DNA of 64,000 nt from the NCBI GenBank assembly GCA_016191425.1, contig JACPOR010000036.1, positions 3,002-67,001 on the forward strand. The letters are read 5' to 3'. This stretch comes from Chloroflexota bacterium. Its GTDB lineage: Bacteria > Chloroflexota > Limnocylindria > Limnocylindrales > CSP1-4. The notes under the pieces were generated by a model, which made no database searches, had not been told where the DNA came from, and was given only the letters and a program-made list of their open reading frames with translations. The translations under genes were made by a program, and so were the position numbers. Position 1 is the first letter of the stretch. Each line of letters begins with the position of its first letter. Positions 4,271 to 23,958 of this stretch are shown in pieces.

Positions 4271-4476
4271 GACACTCCTGACAGCGTTGACTGGATCGTC
4301 ATGCGAGCGCAGGCGCCCGACCGGTCACTCGTCGGCGGCTCCAGCGGCGGACTCGAAGCCGAGGTCGCCCGGTGACACTCCGGACCGCGTTCGACTGGTT
4401 CGTCATGCGAGCGCAGGCGCCCGCCCGGTCACTCGTCGGCGGCTCCAACGGCCGACCCGAAGCCGAGTGCCCGGTC
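4271..4476. repeat. 103-bp tandem duplication x2 (~88% identical); the second copy contains the 3' end and stop of the aminotransferase gene
   Basis: GACACTCC..GTCATGCGAGCGCAGGCGCCCG.CCGGTCACTCGTCGGCGGCTCC... occurs at 4271 and 4374. Confidence 0.9.
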
Positions 4477-5760
4477 GCCTGCGAGCTTGCCACGCGCACG
4501 AGCATCGAGGGCAGCCTTCAGCGACTCCTCGAAGGCCGAGACGGCGATGTCGACGGAGTCGTCCTTCGCGTGGGCTTCGCAGACGAACCACGGCTCGCGG
4601 CTGTCCGGCTCGGGCATCGCCCCGCGGACCTGCATTCCCACCGCGACCGCGTCGTACAGCGCGTGGTCCGTGTCCGCCCAGTCGCGGTACTCGGTGGCGA
4701 CCTTCTCGGTGAACATGATCCCGAACATCGATGGATGGCCAGTGAAGTGGAATGGGAGGCCGGCCTCGTTCACGACCTCGCGGAGGCCGTCCTGGATGCG
4801 CCGGCCCGTCCGGTGCACCGTCTCGAGGGCGTCCGTGTCCCGGATGATCTCGAGCGTCTTGACAACAGCCGCCGCCGCGACCCGATTCCCGGCGTACGTC
4901 CCGCCGTGGCTGACCTTGTCCGGGAGCAGACTCATGATGTCCCGGCGGCCGCCGAATGCCGCTGCGGGATACCCGTTGCCCATGGCCTTCGCGAAGGACG
5001 CCAGGTCGGGCGTGATCCCGAAGTACTCCGCGGCCCCGCGCAAGGCCTTGTGGAAGCCCTCCTGCGGAAGGATCCCCTGGGCGTTACCGAGCACGGGCTC
5101 CACGATGACGGCGGCAATCTCGTGACCCTGCATCTCGAAGAGGCGGCGCAACCGCTCGATGTTGTTGAAGCGGGCCGGAATGATCGTGTTCGCCACCGCG
5201 TTCGGAATGCCGCGGCCCCAGGCCAGTCCAACGGGGTTGTCCGCGTCGCCGAGGTCGGCCATGTTGTTGGGCGATACGCTGATCAGGGCGTAGTCGTGGA
5301 GGCCGTGATACTGGCCCTCGAACTTCACGATCTTGTCCTTGCCGGTGAAGGCGCGGGCAAGGCGCATGAGGTGCATGGTCGCCTCCGTGCCGGAGACGGT
5401 CATGCGGGCCATCTCGACCCAGCCGGTCAGCTCGCAGACCAGCTCGAGCGCGCGGACTTCGTCCTCGCTGGTCAGCGAGAAGCTCACCCCCTGCCGCATC
5501 CGCCCGTTCACGTAGTCGTCGACGCGCTCATCGCCGTGGCCCAGGATCACGGGTCCGTAGCCCATCCGCAGGTCGACGAATTCGTTGCCATCGATGTCCC
5601 ACACGCGGCCGCCCTTGCCGCGATCCACGTAGATCGTGTCCTCGCCCCAGGCCCGGAAATTCGAGTTCGCTCCACCGGGGAGGGTCCTGATGGCGCGCCG
5701 GTACATCTCCAGCTGGCGAGCCCGACGGAGCGGGGAGGGGGTGTTCGAGGTGCCTGACAT
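4429..5760 (-). CDS. Class-III PLP-dependent aminotransferase (glutamate-1-semialdehyde aminomutase-like family)
   Basis: The track ORF 4429..6279 was trimmed to the ATG at 5760, which is preceded by GGAGG. Motifs: SGTEATMHLMRLARAFTG, VIVEPVLGN and FAKAMGNGYP (PLP lysine). Confidence 0.85.
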   Translation of the reverse strand: MSGTSNTPSPLRRARQLEMYRRAIRTLPGGANSNFRAWGEDTIYVDRGKGGRVWDIDGNEFVDLRMGYGPVILGHGDERVDDYVNGRMRQGVSFSLTSEDEVRALELVCELTGWVEMARMTVSGTEATMHLMRLARAFTGKDKIVKFEGQYHGLHDYALISVSPNNMADLGDADNPVGLAWGRGIPNAVANTIIPARFNNIERLRRLFEMQGHEIAAVIVEPVLGNAQGILPQEGFHKALRGAAEYFGITPDLASFAKAMGNGYPAAAFGGRRDIMSLLPDKVSHGGTYAGNRVAAAAVVKTLEIIRDTDALETVHRTGRRIQDGLREVVNEAGLPFHFTGHPSMFGIMFTEKVATEYRDWADTDHALYDAVAVGMQVRGAMPEPDSREPWFVCEAHAKDDSVDIAVSAFEESLKAALDARARGKLAGDRALGFGSAVGAADE

Positions 5761-6001
5761 GGTGCCTCCGGGCGCTGGTTGAGTCGCAAGTCGGATATGG
5801 TCCGGGACCGCGCAACACGGCGTTGCGACGGGCGGGACGCGGGTCATCATCGTGCCACAGCCCCTGTGGACCGTCAACGCGATATTCGTCCTTGAAGGGC
5901 CTGCGGCCTGCGAAATCCGTTTTCTCACACTGCCATCGCAGCCTGATGCGCAGCAAGCGAGCCTGCCTTGATATGCGCCGCGGGCCGCGTAGGATGGCGG
6001 T

Positions 6002-7399
6002 GTGCAGCCCGCAGCCATGATCCCCGACCCGTCCAGTCCGGGCTTCTGGCTGACCGGAACCCTGGACTCCGTGGAGCCGACCCTGAGAGGCGCGGCCCGG
6101 TGCGACGTGGCCGTCATCGGTGGCGGATTCACCGGGTTGTGGACGGCGATCCAGCTCCTTGACGCCGATCCCGGCCTGCGGGTCAGGGTCCTGGAGATGG
6201 AGCGCGTCGGATTCGGGGCGTCCGGCAGGAATGGCGGATTCTGTGATGCCTCGCTGACGCACGGTCTTGCCAATGGCATCGCCCATTTTCCTCACGAGAT
6301 CCGGCAGCTCGAAGCGGAGGGCCGTCGCAACCTCGGCGAACTCGTCGCCTTCGTCGAGGCCGAGGGGATTGACTGCTGTCTCGAGAAGACGGGCGCGATG
6401 AGCGTTGCCGATCATCCGCACCAGGTTGACGGGCTCCGCGAGTTCGCCGATGTTGCCGCTGACTACGGGGTCTCGCTGACGTTCTTCGATCGAAAGGCCC
6501 TGGCCGCGGAGATTCGATCGCCGGTCTTCGAAGCCGGCCTGCTGGCGGGCCCGGAGCAGACGGTCATGCTCGATCCCGCGAAGCTCGCCCGGGGCCTCAA
6601 GCACGCCTCGCTCGGTCGCGGCGTGACGATCCACGAGCAGACGCGGGCCGTCGGCGTCGAGCGCCGGGCGGGTGCGGTTCGGATTCGAACCTCGACCGGT
6701 GCCACCCTCCTGGCGCAGCATGTCGTCGTGGCCACCTCCGCCTATTCAGGCTGGCTCGGACGCCTCCAGCGGTTGTTCGTCCCGGTCTATGACTATGTCC
6801 TGGTGTCCGATCCGCTCACGCCCGATCAACTCGCGTCCGTGGGCTGGCAACGCCGGATGGGAATCTCCGACGCCGGCAACCAGTTCCACTACTTTCGGCT
6901 GACCGCAGACGACCGGATCCTGTGGGGTGGCTACGACGCCGTCTACCACCCTGGCAATCGCGTCGGCCCGGATCTCGACCAGCGCCCCGAGACCTTCAAA
7001 CGGCTCGAGCGGCAATTCTTCCGGGCATTCCCGCAGCTGATCGGCCTCCGGTTCCCGTGGCGCTGGGGCGGCGCGATCGACACCACGAGCCGGTTCATGG
7101 CCACCTTCGGCCAATCCCTGGGTGGCCGGCTGACGTATGCCCTCGGCTACACCGGGCTCGGGGTCGGAGCGGCGCGCTGGGCCGGTGGCGTGGTCCGTGA
7201 CCTGATCCTGGATCCCGACGCGGATCGACTCCAGCTCGAGATGGTCCGGAGCGTGCCGTTCCCGTTCCCGCCGGAGCCGGCACGCAGCCTCACGGTCGCG
7301 GCCGTCCAGCATGAGCTCGCGCGTGCCGACGAACGCGGAGGTCGGCGGGGCCTGCTACTCCGAACCCTCGACGCCATCGGTGTCGGCTTCGACTCCTGA
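6002..7399 (+). CDS. FAD-dependent oxidoreductase (DAO family)
   Basis: N-terminal dinucleotide fold DVAVIGGGFTGLWTAIQL...GASGRNGG; 465 aa; divergent from the aminotransferase gene. Confidence 0.85.
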   Translation: MQPAAMIPDPSSPGFWLTGTLDSVEPTLRGAARCDVAVIGGGFTGLWTAIQLLDADPGLRVRVLEMERVGFGASGRNGGFCDASLTHGLANGIAHFPHEIRQLEAEGRRNLGELVAFVEAEGIDCCLEKTGAMSVADHPHQVDGLREFADVAADYGVSLTFFDRKALAAEIRSPVFEAGLLAGPEQTVMLDPAKLARGLKHASLGRGVTIHEQTRAVGVERRAGAVRIRTSTGATLLAQHVVVATSAYSGWLGRLQRLFVPVYDYVLVSDPLTPDQLASVGWQRRMGISDAGNQFHYFRLTADDRILWGGYDAVYHPGNRVGPDLDQRPETFKRLERQFFRAFPQLIGLRFPWRWGGAIDTTSRFMATFGQSLGGRLTYALGYTGLGVGAARWAGGVVRDLILDPDADRLQLEMVRSVPFPFPPEPARSLTVAAVQHELARADERGGRRGLLLRTLDAIGVGFDS

Positions 7400-7682: not shown

Positions 7683-10601
7683 TCACAGCTCCGGCGCAGC
7701 GTCACCGCAAGAGAATAGGCCGAGCTGCTCACCGTGCTGGCCGGCCGCCGGGTCGAGCCCGAGGTGGGGCTCGAGCCCGGCCAGGTCGAACGGTTCGTGG
7801 GCGAGCCATGCCTGCAGCTGGGGCCAGAGGATCAAGTGCCAGTTGTCCGCCTCGATCGCAGCCTGGAGGATCGGCGAGGCGTCGAGCTTGTGGCGTACCA
7901 GCGCGGCTCGCTCCGGTGCGATCACGAGGAAGCGGACGAGCCCGTCGTCTGCCGGGATCCGATTGTGTCGCCGGAGAAGCACATCGCCGAGCATCGCGGT
8001 CCATTCGACCTCGAAGAGGAAGGCCGTCCTGTTGCGTACGTACCAGATACAGTCGACCTCCTGGAGATCCTCGGCCGAGGCGCGGGCGATGGCCGGCAGC
8101 CACGCGGTCTGCTCGCGTCGTTCGAGGAGGTCGCCGAGCGTGCCGGTCCCGAACCGGCGCGCCTGCTCACGCTGGCCGATCCAGACGTTCATGCCCAGGC
8201 GGTGGCCGCCGTCCGCGAGGCGGGCCAGGAGCTCCGTATGCTCCGTGGTTCGACGACGCACATCCTCACCCGTCACGAGTCGATCCGGTGTCGAGTCCCG
8301 GCTTCGGTAGCTTTCGAGGCAGGCCCGGACGAGAGCCTCATCGGGCAGTTCAGGGCCGCTGAACAGGGCCGTGATGCGGGCGAGGAACGCGTCCTGGTCG
8401 AGCGGCCCGGCCGTCGAGAGCAGACTGTAGACGGCCCACTCGACCCGGTCTGCGAGGGGCACGGCCGCGCCTTCGCGATCTGCTCTCGACTCCAGCCACC
8501 AGCGACCGGGCGCGATCTCGCGAAGACGCTGCTGAGAGGGCCTGGAGAGTTCGTCGCGGATCAGCGTGAGGACGCGCTCGATTGGGTCGGTATCGGAGCG
8601 CGGCAGCGGCTGCTGTCCGGCCCGCGGCGGCGGCTGCTGTCCGGACCCCGGCGGCGATGCCGACCCTGACCGCGGGGGCGGCTCCTGTCCGGCCCGCGGG
8701 GGCGGCTCCTGTCCGGCCCGCGGCGGCGACGCCGCCCCGGGCGGCTCACTGCTATCGGACGTGGCCACGAGCCGATGCAGATGCCCGGCGTGGTCGAGCG
8801 CGATCAGGATCTCGCCGAGCAGGTGCTCGTATCGAGCCGGCTCGCCACGCTCGCGCAACACGCCCACGGCAACGTCCGTGATCGTCCGCGCCGCCTCCGA
8901 CATCGAGAACGGGCGGGCATCGATCCGTTCCGGGGCGGAGAACATCCCCGGCCCCGGGACCATCACCGGGTCACCAGACCCGCCCGGCACCGGATCCAGG
9001 GGCCGCCCGGAACGAGTCCGGGGTCCCGGCGGCAGGGTGGCGCCTGGTGGGATGAGCTCCACGACGCCGCCGTGGTCATCGTCCGGCTCGGCCAGCCGGG
9101 CATCCGAGAGCCGGTACCCGGCCCCCACGCCGCCCAGGACCGCCGCAACGAGCCCCTCGGGACCGCCACCCTCGAGCAGGAGCACAACCCGGCCTTCCCG
9201 GGCCATGAGAGGGACGGCACGTTCCAGCGACGCGCGGAGGGCCGCCGATTGCCACGACCACGGGGCCCGTATGGCCGATCCGCCGAGAGCCTCGAGAGGC
9301 AGCAGCAGGGCGGCCTCACGCCCGAGGGCCCAGCACGTGCCGTGGTACGCGGCCGCAAGGCGCTCCTGGTTGAACCGGAGCGGCGGCTGCCCGAGGATGA
9401 GGCGGATACGCGGCGGCCGCTCGGCACGGTGCGGTTCGCGGAAGCCGTCGCCGTCACGTGCCAGCGACGAGAGCGCATCCGGGGTCGCGACCTGCAGCAA
9501 TACCGTGGCACTGCCTTCGACAAGGCTCCGCAGGTCCGTGCCCAGCCGGGCGTCGAGCGGACCGATGGCGCCGCTCTCGATTCGCTGGACGAAGGCGCGG
9601 ACGACCCGGAAGCCCTCTTCGAAGGCCAGCCACGGATTGCGCTCGCGGACTTTTTCCGGGATCGGCGAGCGGATCGCGCCTCCGGCGATGCGAATGCCCG
9701 GCACGCGCCCCGGACCCGTCCCCAGCCGGCTGGCCGGCAGGACCGCGTGGAGGAGCGCCAGGCGGAGCGCCGATTCCACGGGCGCCGCTCGCAGATCGCC
9801 TTCGATTCGTTCGAGGATCGCCGCCAGGCCGACGAGCTGCCGATCGCTGTGGAGATCGAGGATCGCATCCGCCAGGCCCTCGGAGCCTGCCGGGGCCGGG
9901 AAGCGGTCGCGCAGGCTGGCGCGCAGGGCGGACCCGCCGACGTCGGCGATCGCACGCTCGCGATCAGATTCGTCGGGGGCAGCCCCGCGCTGCTCGAGTC
10001 CACCGCGCTGGTCGCGGCAGACCACGCACCGGTAGGCCTTGTGCGACAGGACGGGTCTCGGTGCCTCGTCGTCCCCGGCCATCGGCTCCGAATGGGTCGT
10101 GCCATCGCGGGGGCGTGCCGCCGCCGCGCCACCCTCCCAGGTGAACTCATCGGCGATGAGGGATCGGTCGCAGGTCGCGCAGCGGGTGGCGAACATGGCT
10201 CCGATCGCGAGCTTGAGGCTCGAGTCGCCGCGGGGCGAAGCGCTGAGGGTGGAGAATGCCGCGTCCAGGTGACGAAGGTCGGGAGGACGCAGCACGACCT
10301 CCGCCAGGAGCCGGGTCAGGGGGCTGCTCTCCAGGGTCACGGCCCGCCGTTGCCGATCGATGGCCGCCCGGGCGACCCAGGCACCCCGACCGTGCAGATC
10401 GGCGACGATGTCGCCCGGGGCAGTCGCCGCCTCGAGGCGGGCGACCACGCTGCTCGGCGACGGTGGGGGTGCGAGCCGTTCGAATGCCGGCATGGTGAAT
10501 CCCGGCTCGTCCCGTGAGAGAAGCACTCGACCCACCATCGATCGATTGTCGCAGAGAGCACCTGGGCGTACGCTGGCCAGGTTCCGCATGGACGCGTCCA
10601 C
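7683..10601 (-). CDS. Large orphan protein: degenerate Zn-ribbon methyltransferase-like N-terminal region, low-complexity linker and PD-(D/E)xK-like C-terminal domain
   Basis: 972-aa ORF; the true start may be at 10493 or 10538. Motif-I-like DIVADLHGRGAWVARAA. CxxC...CxxC (CATCD / CVVCRD). QPPLRFNQ-x11-W lies where DPPYYDN-x11-W is expected. PRAGQEPPP repeats. The C-terminus has EVDCIWYVRNRTAFLFEVEWT. Confidence 0.65.
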   Translation of the reverse strand: MDASMRNLASVRPGALCDNRSMVGRVLLSRDEPGFTMPAFERLAPPPSPSSVVARLEAATAPGDIVADLHGRGAWVARAAIDRQRRAVTLESSPLTRLLAEVVLRPPDLRHLDAAFSTLSASPRGDSSLKLAIGAMFATRCATCDRSLIADEFTWEGGAAAARPRDGTTHSEPMAGDDEAPRPVLSHKAYRCVVCRDQRGGLEQRGAAPDESDRERAIADVGGSALRASLRDRFPAPAGSEGLADAILDLHSDRQLVGLAAILERIEGDLRAAPVESALRLALLHAVLPASRLGTGPGRVPGIRIAGGAIRSPIPEKVRERNPWLAFEEGFRVVRAFVQRIESGAIGPLDARLGTDLRSLVEGSATVLLQVATPDALSSLARDGDGFREPHRAERPPRIRLILGQPPLRFNQERLAAAYHGTCWALGREAALLLPLEALGGSAIRAPWSWQSAALRASLERAVPLMAREGRVVLLLEGGGPEGLVAAVLGGVGAGYRLSDARLAEPDDDHGGVVELIPPGATLPPGPRTRSGRPLDPVPGGSGDPVMVPGPGMFSAPERIDARPFSMSEAARTITDVAVGVLRERGEPARYEHLLGEILIALDHAGHLHRLVATSDSSEPPGAASPPRAGQEPPPRAGQEPPPRSGSASPPGSGQQPPPRAGQQPLPRSDTDPIERVLTLIRDELSRPSQQRLREIAPGRWWLESRADREGAAVPLADRVEWAVYSLLSTAGPLDQDAFLARITALFSGPELPDEALVRACLESYRSRDSTPDRLVTGEDVRRRTTEHTELLARLADGGHRLGMNVWIGQREQARRFGTGTLGDLLERREQTAWLPAIARASAEDLQEVDCIWYVRNRTAFLFEVEWTAMLGDVLLRRHNRIPADDGLVRFLVIAPERAALVRHKLDASPILQAAIEADNWHLILWPQLQAWLAHEPFDLAGLEPHLGLDPAAGQHGEQLGLFSCGDAAPEL

Positions 10602-10850
10602 GACCTGCTCGACCGCCTGGCCCGAGACTCGTCACCGACGCGCGCAGCACGCGAACAGCCGCCGAGGCCTGAGGGTGATCCCCGCCGACGTTGTTCAGGG
10701 GATCTCCAGGGGCTGATCAAGATGGTTCATCAGATCGGGCGCATTCACGCTCGGCCGAGCAGCGGACTGCACGGCGATCCAGCAGGGCCACGCTCGTCTG
10801 CGTCGATAGTGATGAACCACATCGATCACGACCGGCTGTCGCTGGATCAC

Positions 10851-10951
10851 GGCGGCGGCGCTCGATCAGGGCGGCGGCGCTCGATCAGGGCGGCCGTCGC
10901 GCATTCCATCGGCGGCGGCGCTCGATCAGGGCGGCCGTCGCGCATTCCATC
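10851..10951. repeat. Composite tandem repeat (20-bp GGCGGCGGCGCTCGATCAGG plus 21-bp GCGGCCGTCGCGCATTCCATC units)
   Basis: Direct reading. Confidence 0.85.
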
Positions 10952-11019
10952 GGCGTTCGCCGGCAGTGTCTGCGATGTCTACCGCCAGCTCCGCCCTGGA
11001 ACCGCGGCGCCGGCCCCAG

Positions 11020-11074
11020 TCAGCTGCCTACACCTCACTCAGCTGACTACCCTCGGTCAGCTGCCTACCCCTCG
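11020..11074. repeat. Tandem repeat, 18-19-bp unit TCAGCTGMCTACMCCTCR x3; the last unit contains the stop codon of the TPR gene
   Basis: Direct reading; the stop (CTA on the plus strand) is at 11065-11067. Confidence 0.85.
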
Positions 11075-12411: not shown

Positions 12412-13266
12412 TCAGCTGCGGAGCCGGATGCTCCAGGCCACGACCAGCACCCCGAGGACCGCGAGAAGGACCGTTTCCCAGATCCACCGGGCGTCGCGGC
12501 GACGTGACGGTTCCCTGGCATGCACGGCGTCCCAGAGAAAGAAGACGAGGACGAGGAGGGCCGGACCGAGCAGGCGAGGGATCTCCATCGCCCTGAGCGC
12601 GGCAGCCGCGATCGCCACGAGCGCAGCGCTCGTGAGCGCGAACCAGGCGACGTCCCGGAGGTTCGACGACCGAAGCGCCGCCGCCCGATAGCCCAGCAGG
12701 AACGCCATGAAGGCGTCCGCGACGGCGAGCGCGGCGAGTTGCGCACCGGTCGGCGCCCCGAAGACGGAGCTTCCATCCGGAAACCCGGCGGGGACCAGCG
12801 CGGCCATGCCCGAGAAGCCCAGCAGGCCCACGATCAGCGCCTGCCCCACCACGGCCGTCCGGTCGGCGCTGGAAGGTCCGGAGGTGCTCGCGAGCAGGCG
12901 AGCCTCCGTTCCGATGACGCGGAGGAGCAGCCACGCCCCGATCATGATCGCCGGGACCAGCAGGATTCCTGCCGGTACCAGGCGGATGCTGCCGAAGATC
13001 GAGATGACGGTCGCGGCGGGCACCATGAGCGACTCCACGGGCACGCCGGGCCCTTCCGTCGCCGGCACGCCGTCGCCCAGCAGCTGGAGCGCGCCAAAGG
13101 CCACAGCAAACAGGAGGCAGGCCCCCACGATCCAGGCCGCCGGGCCGTCGACGAACCGGGAGAGCAGGACCACGACCATCGAGGCGGCCACGAGATCGCG
13201 CGATCCGCTGAGGGTGCTCATCGAATCGATGGTACGCGAGGGTTGACGCCCGGTCTCGATCGTCAT
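12412..13266 (-). CDS. Polytopic membrane protein of unknown function
   Basis: 284 aa with multiple hydrophobic helices. Its start overlaps the polX stop (ATGA), suggesting co-translation. Confidence 0.7.
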   Translation of the reverse strand: MTIETGRQPSRTIDSMSTLSGSRDLVAASMVVVLLSRFVDGPAAWIVGACLLFAVAFGALQLLGDGVPATEGPGVPVESLMVPAATVISIFGSIRLVPAGILLVPAIMIGAWLLLRVIGTEARLLASTSGPSSADRTAVVGQALIVGLLGFSGMAALVPAGFPDGSSVFGAPTGAQLAALAVADAFMAFLLGYRAAALRSSNLRDVAWFALTSAALVAIAAAALRAMEIPRLLGPALLVLVFFLWDAVHAREPSRRRDARWIWETVLLAVLGVLVVAWSIRLRS

Positions 13267-15143
13267 GACCGTACGACGCGGTCGTTCCGCCGCACGTAGT
13301 CAAGCAGGTCGGCCCGCGATCGCGTATTCATGACCGTGGCCGGCTCGACCCAGGCCCGACGCGCCTGGGAGACACCCCACGCGAGGTGATCGAATTCCTC
13401 GGTCCGATGCGCATCGGAGTCGACCGCCAGGAAGCATCCGATCGACATCGCGTGGCGGGCTCGCTCGACGGAGAGATCCAGGCGATGCGGTGAGCCGTTC
13501 ATCTCGAGCAGCGTGCCGGTCCGGGCAGCCTCGGCGTAGACGGCATCCCAGTCAAGATCGAGGTCATCGCGCTCGCCGAGCTTCCGGCCCGACGGGTGCC
13601 CGATGACATCGACATGCGGATTGCGAATCGCGCCGAGGACCCGCGCGGTCAGCTCTGCGCGGGACTGACGCCGCCCGACATGGAGAGACGCCACGACGAC
13701 GTCGAAGCGGCTGAGCAGGGTGTCGTCGTAGTCGAGTCGCCCGTCGGCGCGAATCTCCAGCTCACAGCCGTGCAGGAGACGGAAGCCCTCGGGCGACGTC
13801 TCCGCCGGCGCGGTACCCGCGTCCTCCTCCCGGGCGAAGCGTCGATTGAGCCCGGCGATCACCCGCGCCTGCCGGGCGACGCGCTCGGGCGTCAGGCCCC
13901 GGGCGATCGCCAGCGACATCGAATGGTCGGTCAGCACCTGGTACGCGTGGCCCCGGCGCCGGGCGGCCTCGGCCATGACCTCGATGGGCTGACTCCCGTC
14001 CGACCAGTCCGAGTGGGAATGCAGGTCGCCCCGCAGATCCCCGAGCTCGAGGAGTGTCGGCAGGGTCCCCGCGAGCGCGGCCTCGATCTCGCCGGTGTCC
14101 TCACGCAGCTCCGGGGCGATGAATGGCAGATCGAGGAAGGCGTAGAGCGCGGCCTCGGTCGGGAAGGTCCTGAGCTCCGCATCCGCCCCGGCCAGCACCG
14201 ATCCGCCGTCCGCGAGGCGCGCGAACCCCTTCTCGGAGAGGCTCCAGCCGCGGTCCCGGGCGCGTTCGCGCAAACGGACGTTGTGCGCCTTGGAGCCCGT
14301 GAAATGCACGAGGTAGGAACCGGCTGCGCCGGGGGCCATGCGCATCAGGTCGATCTGCGGACCGCCCGTCGCGCGGATGGCCGCTTTCTCGGGGCCCTGG
14401 TTGATCACGGCCTCGATCGCCGGCAGCGTCGTGAATCGTTCGATCACCGGTCCTGCGTCGGTGATCTCCACGAGCAGGTCGAGGTCGCCGATCGTCTCGC
14501 GGCGCCGGCGATACGAGCCTGCGGCCACGACCTGGGCGACACCCTCGACGGGCGCGAGGACCGCGATCACCCGGTCCACCACCGCGCGGGCATCGTGGAG
14601 GAGCAGGCGGTGATCCTTTGACCGGATACCCTCAATGCCCTCGAGGATCGCGGCCTCGGTGCGGGAGGACAGGCCGCGCAGGCCGCGTAGTCGGCCAGAT
14701 TGCGCGGCGGCCCGGAGCCCCTCGAGGTCCGCGATACCGAGCGTGGTCCAGAGCTGTCGCACCGTCTTCGGCCCGAGCCCCGGCACACCAAGAAGATCCA
14801 GCAGCGTCGCCGGGAACTCTGCCACGAGGTGCTCGTGATAGCGGAGGCGCCCGGTGCGCGCCAGTTCGGCCACCTTGTCGGCGATTGCCCGCCCGACACC
14901 CGGCAGGTCCGGCGGATGGCCATCGAGGTAGGCCTGGGCAACACCGACCGGCGCCCGCCCGATCGTGTCCGCGGCGCGGTGGTAGGCGACGGTTTTGAAT
15001 ACGAGTTCGCCCTTGATCTCGAGGAGGTCGCCGATCTCGTGGAAGATGCGGGCGAGCTCGGCGTTGGACGGCAGCTCCGCGTTGGACGGCAGCTCCGCGC
15101 CCGGAGGCAGCGCCGGAGATTCGGATTCGTCGGTGGCGGGCAC
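13263..15143 (-). CDS. polX: DNA polymerase X family protein with C-terminal PHP phosphoesterase domain
   Basis: HhH/PolX N-terminus FHEIGDLLEIKGE..FKTVAYHRAA, nucleotidyltransferase GSYRRRRETIGDLDLLV and PHP DLHSHSDWSDG...DSDAH. The N-terminus carries the ELPSNA x2 repeat. Confidence 0.9.
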   Translation of the reverse strand: MPATDESESPALPPGAELPSNAELPSNAELARIFHEIGDLLEIKGELVFKTVAYHRAADTIGRAPVGVAQAYLDGHPPDLPGVGRAIADKVAELARTGRLRYHEHLVAEFPATLLDLLGVPGLGPKTVRQLWTTLGIADLEGLRAAAQSGRLRGLRGLSSRTEAAILEGIEGIRSKDHRLLLHDARAVVDRVIAVLAPVEGVAQVVAAGSYRRRRETIGDLDLLVEITDAGPVIERFTTLPAIEAVINQGPEKAAIRATGGPQIDLMRMAPGAAGSYLVHFTGSKAHNVRLRERARDRGWSLSEKGFARLADGGSVLAGADAELRTFPTEAALYAFLDLPFIAPELREDTGEIEAALAGTLPTLLELGDLRGDLHSHSDWSDGSQPIEVMAEAARRRGHAYQVLTDHSMSLAIARGLTPERVARQARVIAGLNRRFAREEDAGTAPAETSPEGFRLLHGCELEIRADGRLDYDDTLLSRFDVVVASLHVGRRQSRAELTARVLGAIRNPHVDVIGHPSGRKLGERDDLDLDWDAVYAEAARTGTLLEMNGSPHRLDLSVERARHAMSIGCFLAVDSDAHRTEEFDHLAWGVSQARRAWVEPATVMNTRSRADLLDYVRRNDRVVRS

Positions 15144-22884: not shown

Positions 22885-22924
22885 TTGACGAGACCGTACC
22901 CCTCACGTACCGTTGGGTACGGTC
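22885..22924 (+). promoter_or_regulatory. Putative promoter TTGACG-N17-TACCGT overlapped by a perfect 10-bp inverted repeat GACCGTACCC/GGGTACGGTC
   Basis: Read directly upstream of the Fic gene. GTAC-containing motifs recur five times in this leader. Confidence 0.4.
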
Positions 22925-22950
22925 TATTTGTCTTCTGGAGACGTACCTCG

Positions 22951-23958
22951 ATGGCGATGTCCAAGGACGGGCGCGGCCGTCCATCCCGCCTCTCGATCTA
23001 CAGGGCGGTGGATGACGGCATCGCCGAGCTCCAGGGGATCGGCGGCCTTCCAGGACCGGCCGTGGCCTCCGAGCTCTGGCGTGACATCTGGTACGAGGAG
23101 ACGCACAACTCAACCGCGATCGAGGGCAACACGCTCATCCTCAAGCAGGTTCGGATGCTCCTTGAAGAAGGTCGGGCGGTGGGTGACAGGGAGCTCCGCG
23201 AATACCTCGAGGTCAAGGGGTACGCGGATGCGGCGGACTGGGTGTACGCCCAGGCCAACGATCTCGATGCGGAGCGGGAGGAGCCGTACCTGCTGTTGTC
23301 CGAACTCCGGGAGATCCATTCACGGGTCGTCGCATCGGTGTGGGATGTGGCTCCGCCAGTGAACTTCCTTCCGGGCGAGGGGCCCGGGAGCTTCCGGCTC
23401 CACGACATCCTCCCATTTACGAGCGGGATGACCCCGGCACCCTTCACGGACATCCACCCGAGGATCACGGACTGGCTGCGGGTAGCCAACGCTGAGCCAC
23501 CACCCGGCGTGCACCTGATGGAACACATCGCCAGGATTCACGCCGAGTTCGAGCGAATTCACCCGTTCCGCGACGGAAACGGCCGCACGGGCAGGCTAGC
23601 CATGAACCTCATCCTCGTCCGTCGTGGCTACGCGCCTGCGATCATCTACAAGCGCGACAGGCCACGGTACCTGCGAGCCCTGGAGCGCACCGACCGTGGC
23701 GAGTTCGGGCCGCTGGCGGAGATCACCGCGCGCGCCGTGAAGGACAGTCTTGATCGGTTCCTGCTGCCGGCGCTCGCGGGGCCTCACCAAATGCTTCCGA
23801 TCTCCGCCCTCGCCCGGAAGAACCTCACCACGCTTGCCCTCCGACGTGCCGCGGAAAAGGGTCGGCTCCAGGCACAGCGCCGGGCGACGGGCTGGTATAG
23901 CACCAAGATATGGGTCGACCAGTACGCGCGGTCGCGACGGAGCCGCGGCGCGAGGTAG
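22951..23958 (+). CDS. Fic/DOC family protein (probable AMPylase-type)
   Basis: Fic motif HPFRDGNGRTGRLAMN; Fic_N-like STAIEGNTL; ATG 22951 with GGAG upstream. Confidence 0.85.
   Translation: MAMSKDGRGRPSRLSIYRAVDDGIAELQGIGGLPGPAVASELWRDIWYEETHNSTAIEGNTLILKQVRMLLEEGRAVGDRELREYLEVKGYADAADWVYAQANDLDAEREEPYLLLSELREIHSRVVASVWDVAPPVNFLPGEGPGSFRLHDILPFTSGMTPAPFTDIHPRITDWLRVANAEPPPGVHLMEHIARIHAEFERIHPFRDGNGRTGRLAMNLILVRRGYAPAIIYKRDRPRYLRALERTDRGEFGPLAEITARAVKDSLDRFLLPALAGPHQMLPISALARKNLTTLALRRAAEKGRLQAQRRATGWYSTKIWVDQYARSRRSRGAR

Follow-up and report, generated by a model that had tools for sequence, protein, structure and literature searches.

A gene on the minus strand (7683..10538) of a 64,000-nucleotide stretch of Chloroflexota DNA (class Limnocylindria; assembly GCA_016191425.1, contig JACPOR010000036.1, positions 3,002 to 67,001; the whole stretch is referred to as the window) descends from a fused DNA methylase–nuclease. 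In the clade to which its product belongs, the methylase motifs have been lost and the acidic residues of the nuclease type have been kept, the sequence is under strong constraint, and inheritance is vertical. Throughout a class of Chloroflexota from soil and fresh water, the gene is conserved on the chromosome and passed on by vertical descent; it is neither an orphan nor a mobile defence gene. The chances are about even that it represents an exapted ('domesticated') single-chain methylase–nuclease, with the recognition unit and the cutting domain taken into a role on the host chromosome. Methylase–nuclease fusions and inactivated enzyme domains serving as sensors are familiar from defence systems; here, a fusion with a lost methylase signature is fixed, syntenic, and held at a ratio of nonsynonymous to synonymous substitutions (dN/dS) of ~0.1 across an entire uncultured class of abundant soil and freshwater Chloroflexota. 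The interest is moderate and lies in this apparent lineage-wide exaptation and in a pseudo-methylase pocket that is the most constrained part of the protein.

An initial annotation, made from the sequence alone, had described a 972-aa orphan with a dead methylase module joined to a nuclease-like C-terminus. The open reading frame (ORF) 7683..10601 on the minus strand does hold 972 codons when counted from a GTG at 10601 (ORF list, translation). The length has to be corrected to 951 aa plus stop, because homologues share the N-terminus MVGRxLLSRxEPGF, which places the likely start at the ATG at 10538; residues of the window protein are numbered from this ATG. The GC content at third codon positions (GC3) is 0.83, the neighbouring genes are alike in this respect, and the codon-position GC is coding-like. 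The gene and the modules of its product, as delimited mainly by AlphaFold2 (AF2) modelling and its predicted local distance difference test scores (pLDDT), are:

7683..10538, minus strand: coding sequence (translation; N-terminus conserved in homologues; GC3 0.83)
10284..10493, minus strand: first half of the predicted Rossmann (class-I methylase) core, residues 16-85 (AF2 strands 44-50 and 65-70, pLDDT >90)
9414..10283, minus strand: insert after core strand 2, residues 86-375, a predicted four-Cys Zn ribbon plus a helical alpha+beta module resembling a target recognition domain
9039..9413, minus strand: second half of the predicted Rossmann core, residues 376-500 (AF2 strands 378-383, 445-455, 476-482 and 491-496)
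8739..8921, minus strand: three-helix module resembling a helix-turn-helix (HTH), residues 540-600 (AF2 helices 546-564, 570-583 and 586-595)
8592..8738, minus strand: disordered Pro/Gly/Gln-rich repeat linker, residues 601-649 (pLDDT <50)
8274..8591, minus strand: winged-helix-like module, residues 650-755 (AF2 helix, beta hairpin, then helices)
7719..8273, minus strand: NmeDI_C-type, PD-(D/E)xK-like nuclease domain, residues 756-940 (PF27126, REase_II, AF2)

All sequence strings quoted in the initial annotation are found in the ORF translation:

Residues 43-59: DIVADLHGRGAWVARAA, the motif-I-like segment
Residues 120-124: CATCD, the first CxxC pair
Residues 171-176: CVVCRD, the second CxxC pair
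Residues 383-403: GQPPLRFNQERLAAAYHGTCW, the segment compared there with a methylase block
Residues 606-648: the PRAGQEPPP-type repeat linker
Residues 827-847: EVDCIWYVRNRTAFLFEVEWT, the C-terminal segment

The homology of the N-terminal module to N6/N4 methylases is strongly indicated by sequence comparison, with a link that is transitive and direct evidence that is weak. Searched on its own, the window protein gave no match at E<=10 to Pfam and NCBIfam profiles (in a Pfam copy lacking PF27126), only chance-level matches to the PDB with phmmer, and only faint MTase_II and REase_II matches with PADLOC. The connection runs via P0313, an 826-aa member of a sister family with canonical methylase motifs, which aligns over its full length with both Chloroflexota clades considered here and carries PF01555, PF02086, PF03602, and PF27126. 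An alignment of the Limnocylindria proteins matches P0313 with an hhalign probability of 99.3% (E=3.6e-20, 733 columns). P0313 in turn matches PF01555 at 7e-16 and has DPFSGSG and TDPPYD; its N-terminus resembles the motif-I part of M.RsrI, and its residues 312-343 resemble the DPPY part of CcrM. Its best PADLOC matches are PglXI (5.6e-38), MTase_II models, and DUF1156_MTase (1.4e-9), and it also matches genes for a 'DUF1156 domain-containing protein' on haloarchaeal plasmids. The likeness to Zn-ribbon methylases of the DUF1156/COG1743 type, proposed at the outset, was therefore a good lead, given the PglXI and DUF1156_MTase values of P0313. A profile of the whole superfamily (A4) recovers M.RsrI at 1.7e-12, and also MboIIA, PvuII, and CcrM, down to 4e-6; with a profile of the Limnocylindria proteins only (A1), M.RsrI (residues 217-275) is the sole PDB match, at E=0.05.

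In alignment with active relatives, motifs I and IV are both replaced in the window protein, in agreement with the changed catalytic positions noted earlier. Compared across the active family, the window clade, and the more distant Anaerolineae-type clades, the three motifs read:

Motif I: DPF(S/A)GSG in the active family; DLHGRG(G/A)W in the window clade; DPFCRTD and DPFAASP in the Anaerolineae type
Motif II: D(L)NP in the active family; LE(S/T)xP in the window clade, with the acid kept (E70); mostly N or D in the Anaerolineae type, as (D/N)F(N/D)P and DSNP
Motif IV: FTDPPYD in the active family; GQPPxRF in the window clade; SAPPRLD and SSPARLD in the Anaerolineae type

At the aligned columns of the window protein, D47-L-H-G-R-G-A-W takes the place of the canonical D-P-F-x-G-S-G, and Q-P-P-L-R-F that of (D/N/S)-P-P-(Y/F/W). 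The replacement residues D47, L48, R51, G52, W54, Q384, P385, P386, and R388 are themselves invariant in the clade. So is the motif-II acid, E70, which ends AF2 strand 65-70 and aligns to the Asp of D(L)NP. Judged by these motifs, the window protein lacks the signature of a functional methylase, though it is homologous to methylase and nuclease families.

The kept E70 bears on the question whether the protein could still be a bifunctional restriction–modification (RM) enzyme of a Type IIG/IIC-like kind, binding S-adenosylmethionine (SAM) and methylating via non-canonical motifs. The part of the Asp/Asn would then be played by Q384 and that of the aromatic residue by F389, with the cofactor held by the Gly-rich HGRGGW loop. 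Two glycines of this loop are retained in the window protein, and most clade members have three, but an Arg replaces the first Gly of GxG, and Leu-His replaces the Pro-Phe of DPF. In favour, QPPxRF does not vary and constraint is strongest in the motif-I region; against, nearly all Chloroflexota clades have lost the aromatic residue right after PP (SAPPRLD, SSPARLD). With no Pfam methylase match in the window protein, and with a core-gene distribution and synteny atypical of RM systems, a persisting methylation activity appears very improbable.

The fold prediction is consistent with the methylase ancestry. The full-length AF2 model, built from a 64-sequence alignment (all Chloroflexota clades plus P0313), has a mean pLDDT of 86.4 and a predicted template modelling score of 0.85. 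In the first Rossmann half, strand 1 (44-50) is followed by the degenerate motif I and strand 2 ends in E70; the insert 86-375 comes next, then strand 378-383, which leads straight into Q384-P385-P386-L-R388-F, where the DPPY of motif IV sits in active relatives, and then the remaining Rossmann strands. By AF2 secondary structure, the methylase-like module described initially spans ~500 residues rather than the ~400 assumed. The cysteines of the predicted Zn ribbon are C120, C123, C171, and C174; all four are invariant in a 21-sequence alignment, and in the 64-sequence alignment three are invariant and C174 is kept in at least 90%. Positions 117-165 of the A4 profile match Zn-finger and Zn-ribbon chains. 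Foldseek searches with the full model returned SAM methylases for nearly all of the top 50 matches; with a best E-value of 5e-3, a TM-score of at most 0.36, and no match at E<=1e-3, this is to be read as a trend only. In PglXI and DUF1156 methylases, a recognition insert is likewise nested after core strand 2, and C-terminal HTH-like domains follow (preprint 10.1101/2025.10.09.681413).

Selection was estimated by the Nei-Gojobori method from 22 independent pairs of loci, 80-93% identical. The dN/dS ratio is 0.11 for the whole gene, 0.095 for the methylase-like module, 0.056 for its motif-I part, 0.085 for the HTH module, 0.081 for the winged helix, 0.098 for the nuclease-like domain, and 0.49 for the linker. 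Mean pairwise identity within the clade is highest in the motif-I segment (81%) and amounts to 20% in the linker. All folded domains are under strong purifying selection, while the linker evolves near-neutrally. To speak of a 'dead scaffold', as was done initially, is misleading, since the motif-I segment is the best-conserved part of the protein. A decaying pseudogene is ruled out by the dN/dS values together with the invariant replacement motifs; from the low dN/dS it follows that the 'dead' module is not decaying and that the altered pocket does something.

A nuclease-like C-terminus, likewise proposed at the outset, is supported by PF27126 matches in homologues, by REase_II matches in the clade, and by the predicted alpha-beta-beta-beta-alpha-beta order. 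A precomputed PF27126 (NmeDI_C) match is on record for the cluster of the window protein (P0001) and for most close homologues; it is marked as weak for the close homologues P0003 and P0041 and unmarked for P0313 and P0348. The PADLOC REase_II profile PDLC03534, which has 351 positions, matches 18 of 27 clade members at E<=0.01 (best 9.4e-5, for P0041) and the window protein itself at E=0.09. A separate AF2 model of residues 650-951 has a pLDDT of 88.9; the predicted C-terminal order is helix 757-780, strands 784-787, 830-834, and 838-845, helix 850-860, and strand 867-873. E766 belongs to helix 1, D829 to the start of strand 2, and E843-V-E845 to strand 3, followed by E876-R877 and K884. D829 and E843-V-E845 occupy the canonical strand 2/3 positions, with Glu at the position of the canonical Lys; BamHI uses a D…ExE arrangement. 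At an overall identity of 61-76%, no clade member differs at E766, D829, E843, E845, E876, or R877, and K884 is kept in at least 90%. E766 on the first helix is nearly invariant; across Chloroflexota clades plus P0313, D829 is kept in at least 90% of the sequences, and the other alignments show no exception to it. The window clade and the active family have the E…D…ExE set in common; in the latter, it reads FE(V/I)E. Foldseek lists for the domain, which hold no match at E<=1e-3, are enriched in this fold: they contain FokI, the R2 restriction-like endonuclease, Card1, MUS81-EME1, FANCM-FAAP24, and SfsA, as well as EcoO109I, a phage restriction endonuclease, ERCC4, VRR-NUC, MmcB, and Mrr.

The same residues decide how seriously a non-catalytic DNA binder has to be taken, i.e. 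a regulator, nucleoid, or scaffold protein in which both enzyme modules are dead. A pure binding surface would not be expected to keep a metal-binding constellation so exactly, without variation in the clade and with its E…D…ExE part also found in the active family. On the other hand, there are sister clades without the E-x-E acids, some of them also without the PxER acid, in which the architecture is preserved over the full length, along with the Zn ribbon, D829, W832, and F842. The canonical Lys of PD-(D/E)xK is missing, and the protein offers several HTH and winged-helix-like modules for binding. On balance, a purely binding role is unlikely, though it deserves to be kept in view.

Between the two enzyme-derived parts lie the putative DNA-binding modules and the linker. 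The RGEP motif of the HTH-like module is conserved family-wide, and the winged-helix-like module bears the motif P-L-x-D-R-V-E700, of which P694 and E700 are invariant family-wide; Cullin winged-helix matches to this module in Foldseek were not significant. The PRAGQEPPP-repeat linker, correctly recognized in the initial annotation, is encoded by a DNA tandem repeat (8599-8738, period 24/72) and is hypervariable among homologues in both length and sequence, from zero to >100 residues.

Far from being an orphan, the window protein has at least 1,621 homologues in a search of a 5.8-billion-protein collection. An exhaustive HMMER search of representatives clustered at 50% identity gave 983 matches at E<=1e-3 and 237 at E<=1e-30. 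The best 120 homologues are full length and 61-73% identical, and those of them with a name are called 'hypothetical protein' and come from metagenome-assembled genomes of Chloroflexota or Candidatus Limnocylindrales. In a scan of GTDB species genomes, relatives were found in 481 stretches; the best 80 of these belong to 80 different assemblies, are full length and 53-73% identical, and are almost all from Limnocylindria-type Chloroflexota. A more distant full-length clade, 30-35% identical (P0208 and relatives, with one cluster named Anaerolineae), carries PF01555 matches. Searches of IMG/VR viral contigs, PLSDB plasmids, and GenBank phages turned up no relatives. No published description of the family was found in the literature on NmeDI, DUF1156, Limnocylindria, and inactive methylases or domestication.

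The gene order in the window is GGDEF–GGDEF–PolX–orf284–TPR–gene–DAO–aminotransferase–…–MscS, and the PolX passes the NCBIfam equivalog cut-off. As stated in the initial annotation, no partner helicase or methylase is nearby: no methylase, helicase, or other defence-type partner lies within ~10 kb on either side. Synteny was counted over 82 Limnocylindria-type loci among 84 loci fetched. In 63-69 of the 82, PolX, orf284, and TPR are found upstream in the same orientation, and the aminotransferase lies downstream in 68. The median identity of the gene to that of the window is 60%, with neighbouring genes ranging from 50 to 81%, and its divergence correlates with PolX identity (r=0.76). Recent horizontal acquisition is ruled out by the neighbour-like GC3, by a divergence that tracks PolX, and by the absence of relatives from the mobile elements searched. 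An operon with PolX was set aside as well: the synteny is general in the lineage, and in some genomes an opposite-strand DinB_2 gene splits TPR from the gene. The gene probably has its own promoter.

This mode of inheritance bears on a rival that comes close to the 'single-polypeptide DNA-sensing or restriction-like function' first suggested: the fixation in the lineage of a modification-dependent (Type IV-like) restriction nuclease that spares its own genome. In such an enzyme, the pocket would flip and read a modified foreign base and direct the cut. A gene standing alone without a cognate methylase is as expected of Type IV enzymes, and the loss of the methylase motifs with the nuclease residues kept is what tolerance without a protecting methylase would need; the ancestry in a methylase–restriction-nuclease fusion, the faint PADLOC MTase_II and REase_II matches, and an architecture of a reader-like module plus nuclease without a methylase partner are all compatible. 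Defence genes, however, tend to show a patchy distribution, a place in variable islands, and sensor modules that evolve fast. The window family does not match such a distribution in patchy, mobile, or variable contexts: the gene occupies one conserved locus in all of the 80 best species genomes, with relatives in 481; its divergence is clock-like with PolX; dN/dS is uniform at ~0.1 across the recognition modules; and no relatives turned up on the plasmids, phages, or viral contigs searched. The restriction or defence reading had itself been made to depend on homologues not being conserved genes in a housekeeping context, and they are conserved, syntenic, and vertically inherited among housekeeping genes, and not found on plasmids, phages, or viral contigs. 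A Type IV-like enzyme is consequently an improbable, if coherent, explanation.

The exaptation reading can be put as a sequence of steps. The ancestor would have belonged to the ~830-aa family, combining a PglXI/DUF1156-style N6/N4 methylase with a nested Zn-ribbon insert, HTHs, a winged helix, and NmeDI_C. In Chloroflexota, DPFxGSG would then have changed to DLHGRGxW and DPPY to QPPxRF, and the protein would have become fixed as the product of a vertically inherited chromosomal gene. The pseudo-methylase pocket, the Zn-ribbon insert, and the HTH and winged-helix modules may together form a unit that recognizes DNA or a base without methylating it, and the C-terminal domain, by its sequence and predicted structure, may be a Mg2+-dependent endonuclease on a flexible linker. 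The role would lie in host DNA metabolism (repair, recombination, or the processing of a particular DNA state) and not in mobile restriction. A more specific version, to be regarded as tentative, holds that an RM fusion was domesticated into a housekeeping genome-maintenance nuclease shared by a bacterial class as a whole. By flipping bases, its pseudo-methylase pocket would read a DNA state, be it hemimethylation, a lesion, or a mismatch, and would license the tethered NmeDI-type nuclease. Such an enzyme would be MutH- or NucS-like, independently evolved from a methylase, and possibly acting with PolX. If the nuclease is active, the protein would stand as an uncommon example of a restriction-type enzyme that took on a core chromosomal function, and its pseudo-methylase pocket would represent a novel type of DNA-state reader.

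Several observations weigh against the exaptation reading. The Pfam and NCBIfam scans of the window protein are empty. The third catalytic position is Glu and not the Lys of PD-(D/E)xK, and the nuclease domain has no significant Foldseek match (best E=0.036 in the PDB and 0.024 in BFVD). Several Anaerolineae-type sister clades lack the ExE acids and have VVQ, VVR, or AIK, so that cleavage may be dispensable for a function common to the whole family. The association with PolX is weak, as unrelated genes (GGDEF, MscS) are equally syntenic and the other-strand DinB_2 gene separates TPR from the gene in some genomes. DNA, rather than RNA, as the probable substrate is suggested by sequence comparison, and for all family members the exaptation reading draws on sequence and models.

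Further observations concern the surroundings of the gene. In related genomes, an opposite-strand DinB_2 gene and a DUF885 gene flank it (L001, 8944-9957 and 12726-14405; L002, 9021-9956 and 12993-14672); both are missing from the window locus. Both flanks are thus indel hotspots, while the gene itself stays, and on account of these insertions the adjacency of PolX was not taken as evidence for an operon. Direct repeats occur in the ~520-nt spacer upstream of the gene, at window positions 10840-10951 and 11014-11073, including two perfect 41-nt copies (10870-10910 and 10911-10951) made of 19-nt units CGCTCGATCAGGGCGGC(G/C)G, of which there are four copies. The 3' end of the TPR gene has three copies of a ~20-nt unit containing CAGCTG. 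These repeats could be regulatory sites or products of replication slippage. orf284 (12412-13266, minus strand) overlaps the stop of PolX (13263-15143, minus strand) by 4 nt and adjoins PolX in 67 of the 82 related loci, at only ~50% identity; it has no Pfam, NCBIfam, or PDB match and is a fast-evolving PolX companion. NCBIfam, Pfam, and PDB searches gave no functional lead for the conserved neighbours orf284, TPR, and orf457. The aminotransferase ORF (4429-6279, minus strand, 616 aa) overlaps the DAO gene (6002-7399, plus strand) by ~280 nt; since its Aminotran_3 match begins only at residue 215, its true start lies well downstream, and the overlap reflects the longest-ORF rule. A Fic/DOC-family gene (22885-23958, plus strand) is found downstream of MgtE and Nramp transporter genes. 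In both distant (Anaerolineae-type) loci examined, a small stand-alone Cas4/PDDEXK_1 gene lies 2.5-5 kb from the homologue (L083, 6875-7474; L084, 17288-17809), which may be coincidence.

Among known systems, MutH offers an analogy for the preferred reading of an exapted methylase–nuclease. It is related to Sau3AI-type restriction nucleases and represents a restriction-nuclease fold that was recruited to vertically inherited, housekeeping DNA repair, where it reads the methylation state. The comparison is one of analogy alone: MutH is without a methylase-derived module, and a repair role of the window protein is hypothetical.

PglXI/BrxXI of Type-3 BREX and the DUF1156 (COG1743) methylases of DUF499-associated, 'BREX-related' loci share with the AF2 layout a Rossmann N6 core, a nested insert, and HTH-like domains. 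They keep their catalytic motifs and work in defence loci with ATPase, helicase, and PglZ partners, whereas the window gene has no such partners, has lost the motifs, and carries a fused nuclease; the window protein itself falls below their profiles.

R.NmeDI, from Neisseria meningitidis, is a Type II restriction endonuclease of 351 aa that cleaves on either side of RCCGGY; it is small, stands alone, and is paired with a separate C5 methylase, and its catalytic residues are not described in the source (PMC2095814). The C-terminal domain of the window protein matches PF27126, the Pfam family named for the NmeDI C-terminus, and the 351-position REase_II profile presumably represents the NmeDI family. 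Only ~95 residues match, at weak E-values. The cleavage by R.NmeDI away from its recognition site fits a tethered, non-specific cleavage domain.

The closest comparison is with the active sister family, which the analysis brought to light as an uncharacterised group of single-chain methylase–nucleases. It comprises >1,300 members from many phyla, ~820-850 aa long, with PF01555 (N6_N4_Mtase) and PF27126 (NmeDI_C); examples are P0313, P0320, P0348, and P0365, annotated as 'DNA adenine methylase', 'DNA modification methylase', or 'RsmD'. The frequent name '16S rRNA G966 N2-methylase RsmD' looks like a misannotation. Members at loci L085-L088 (P0313-P0432) are 57-75% identical to P0313; the gene lies between enolase and phosphoglucomutase in one case and beside RadC-N-like genes in another. 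This family and the window protein are homologous over their full length (hhalign 99.3%) and share the order of Rossmann strands 1-2, Zn-ribbon insert, rest of the core, HTH, winged helix, and nuclease, as well as the Zn-ribbon cysteines (in nearly all members), PLxxRVE, D…W, and FExE; in both, the genes stand alone. The sister family keeps DPF(S/A)GSG and FTDPPYD where the window protein has DLHGRGAW and GQPPLRF. It is spread across phyla (Ignavibacteriales, Thermodesulfobacteriota, Bacteroidota, and the Candidate Phyla Radiation), whereas the window clade is confined to Limnocylindria-type Chloroflexota and a fixed locus and, unlike these relatives, has a long disordered repeat linker.

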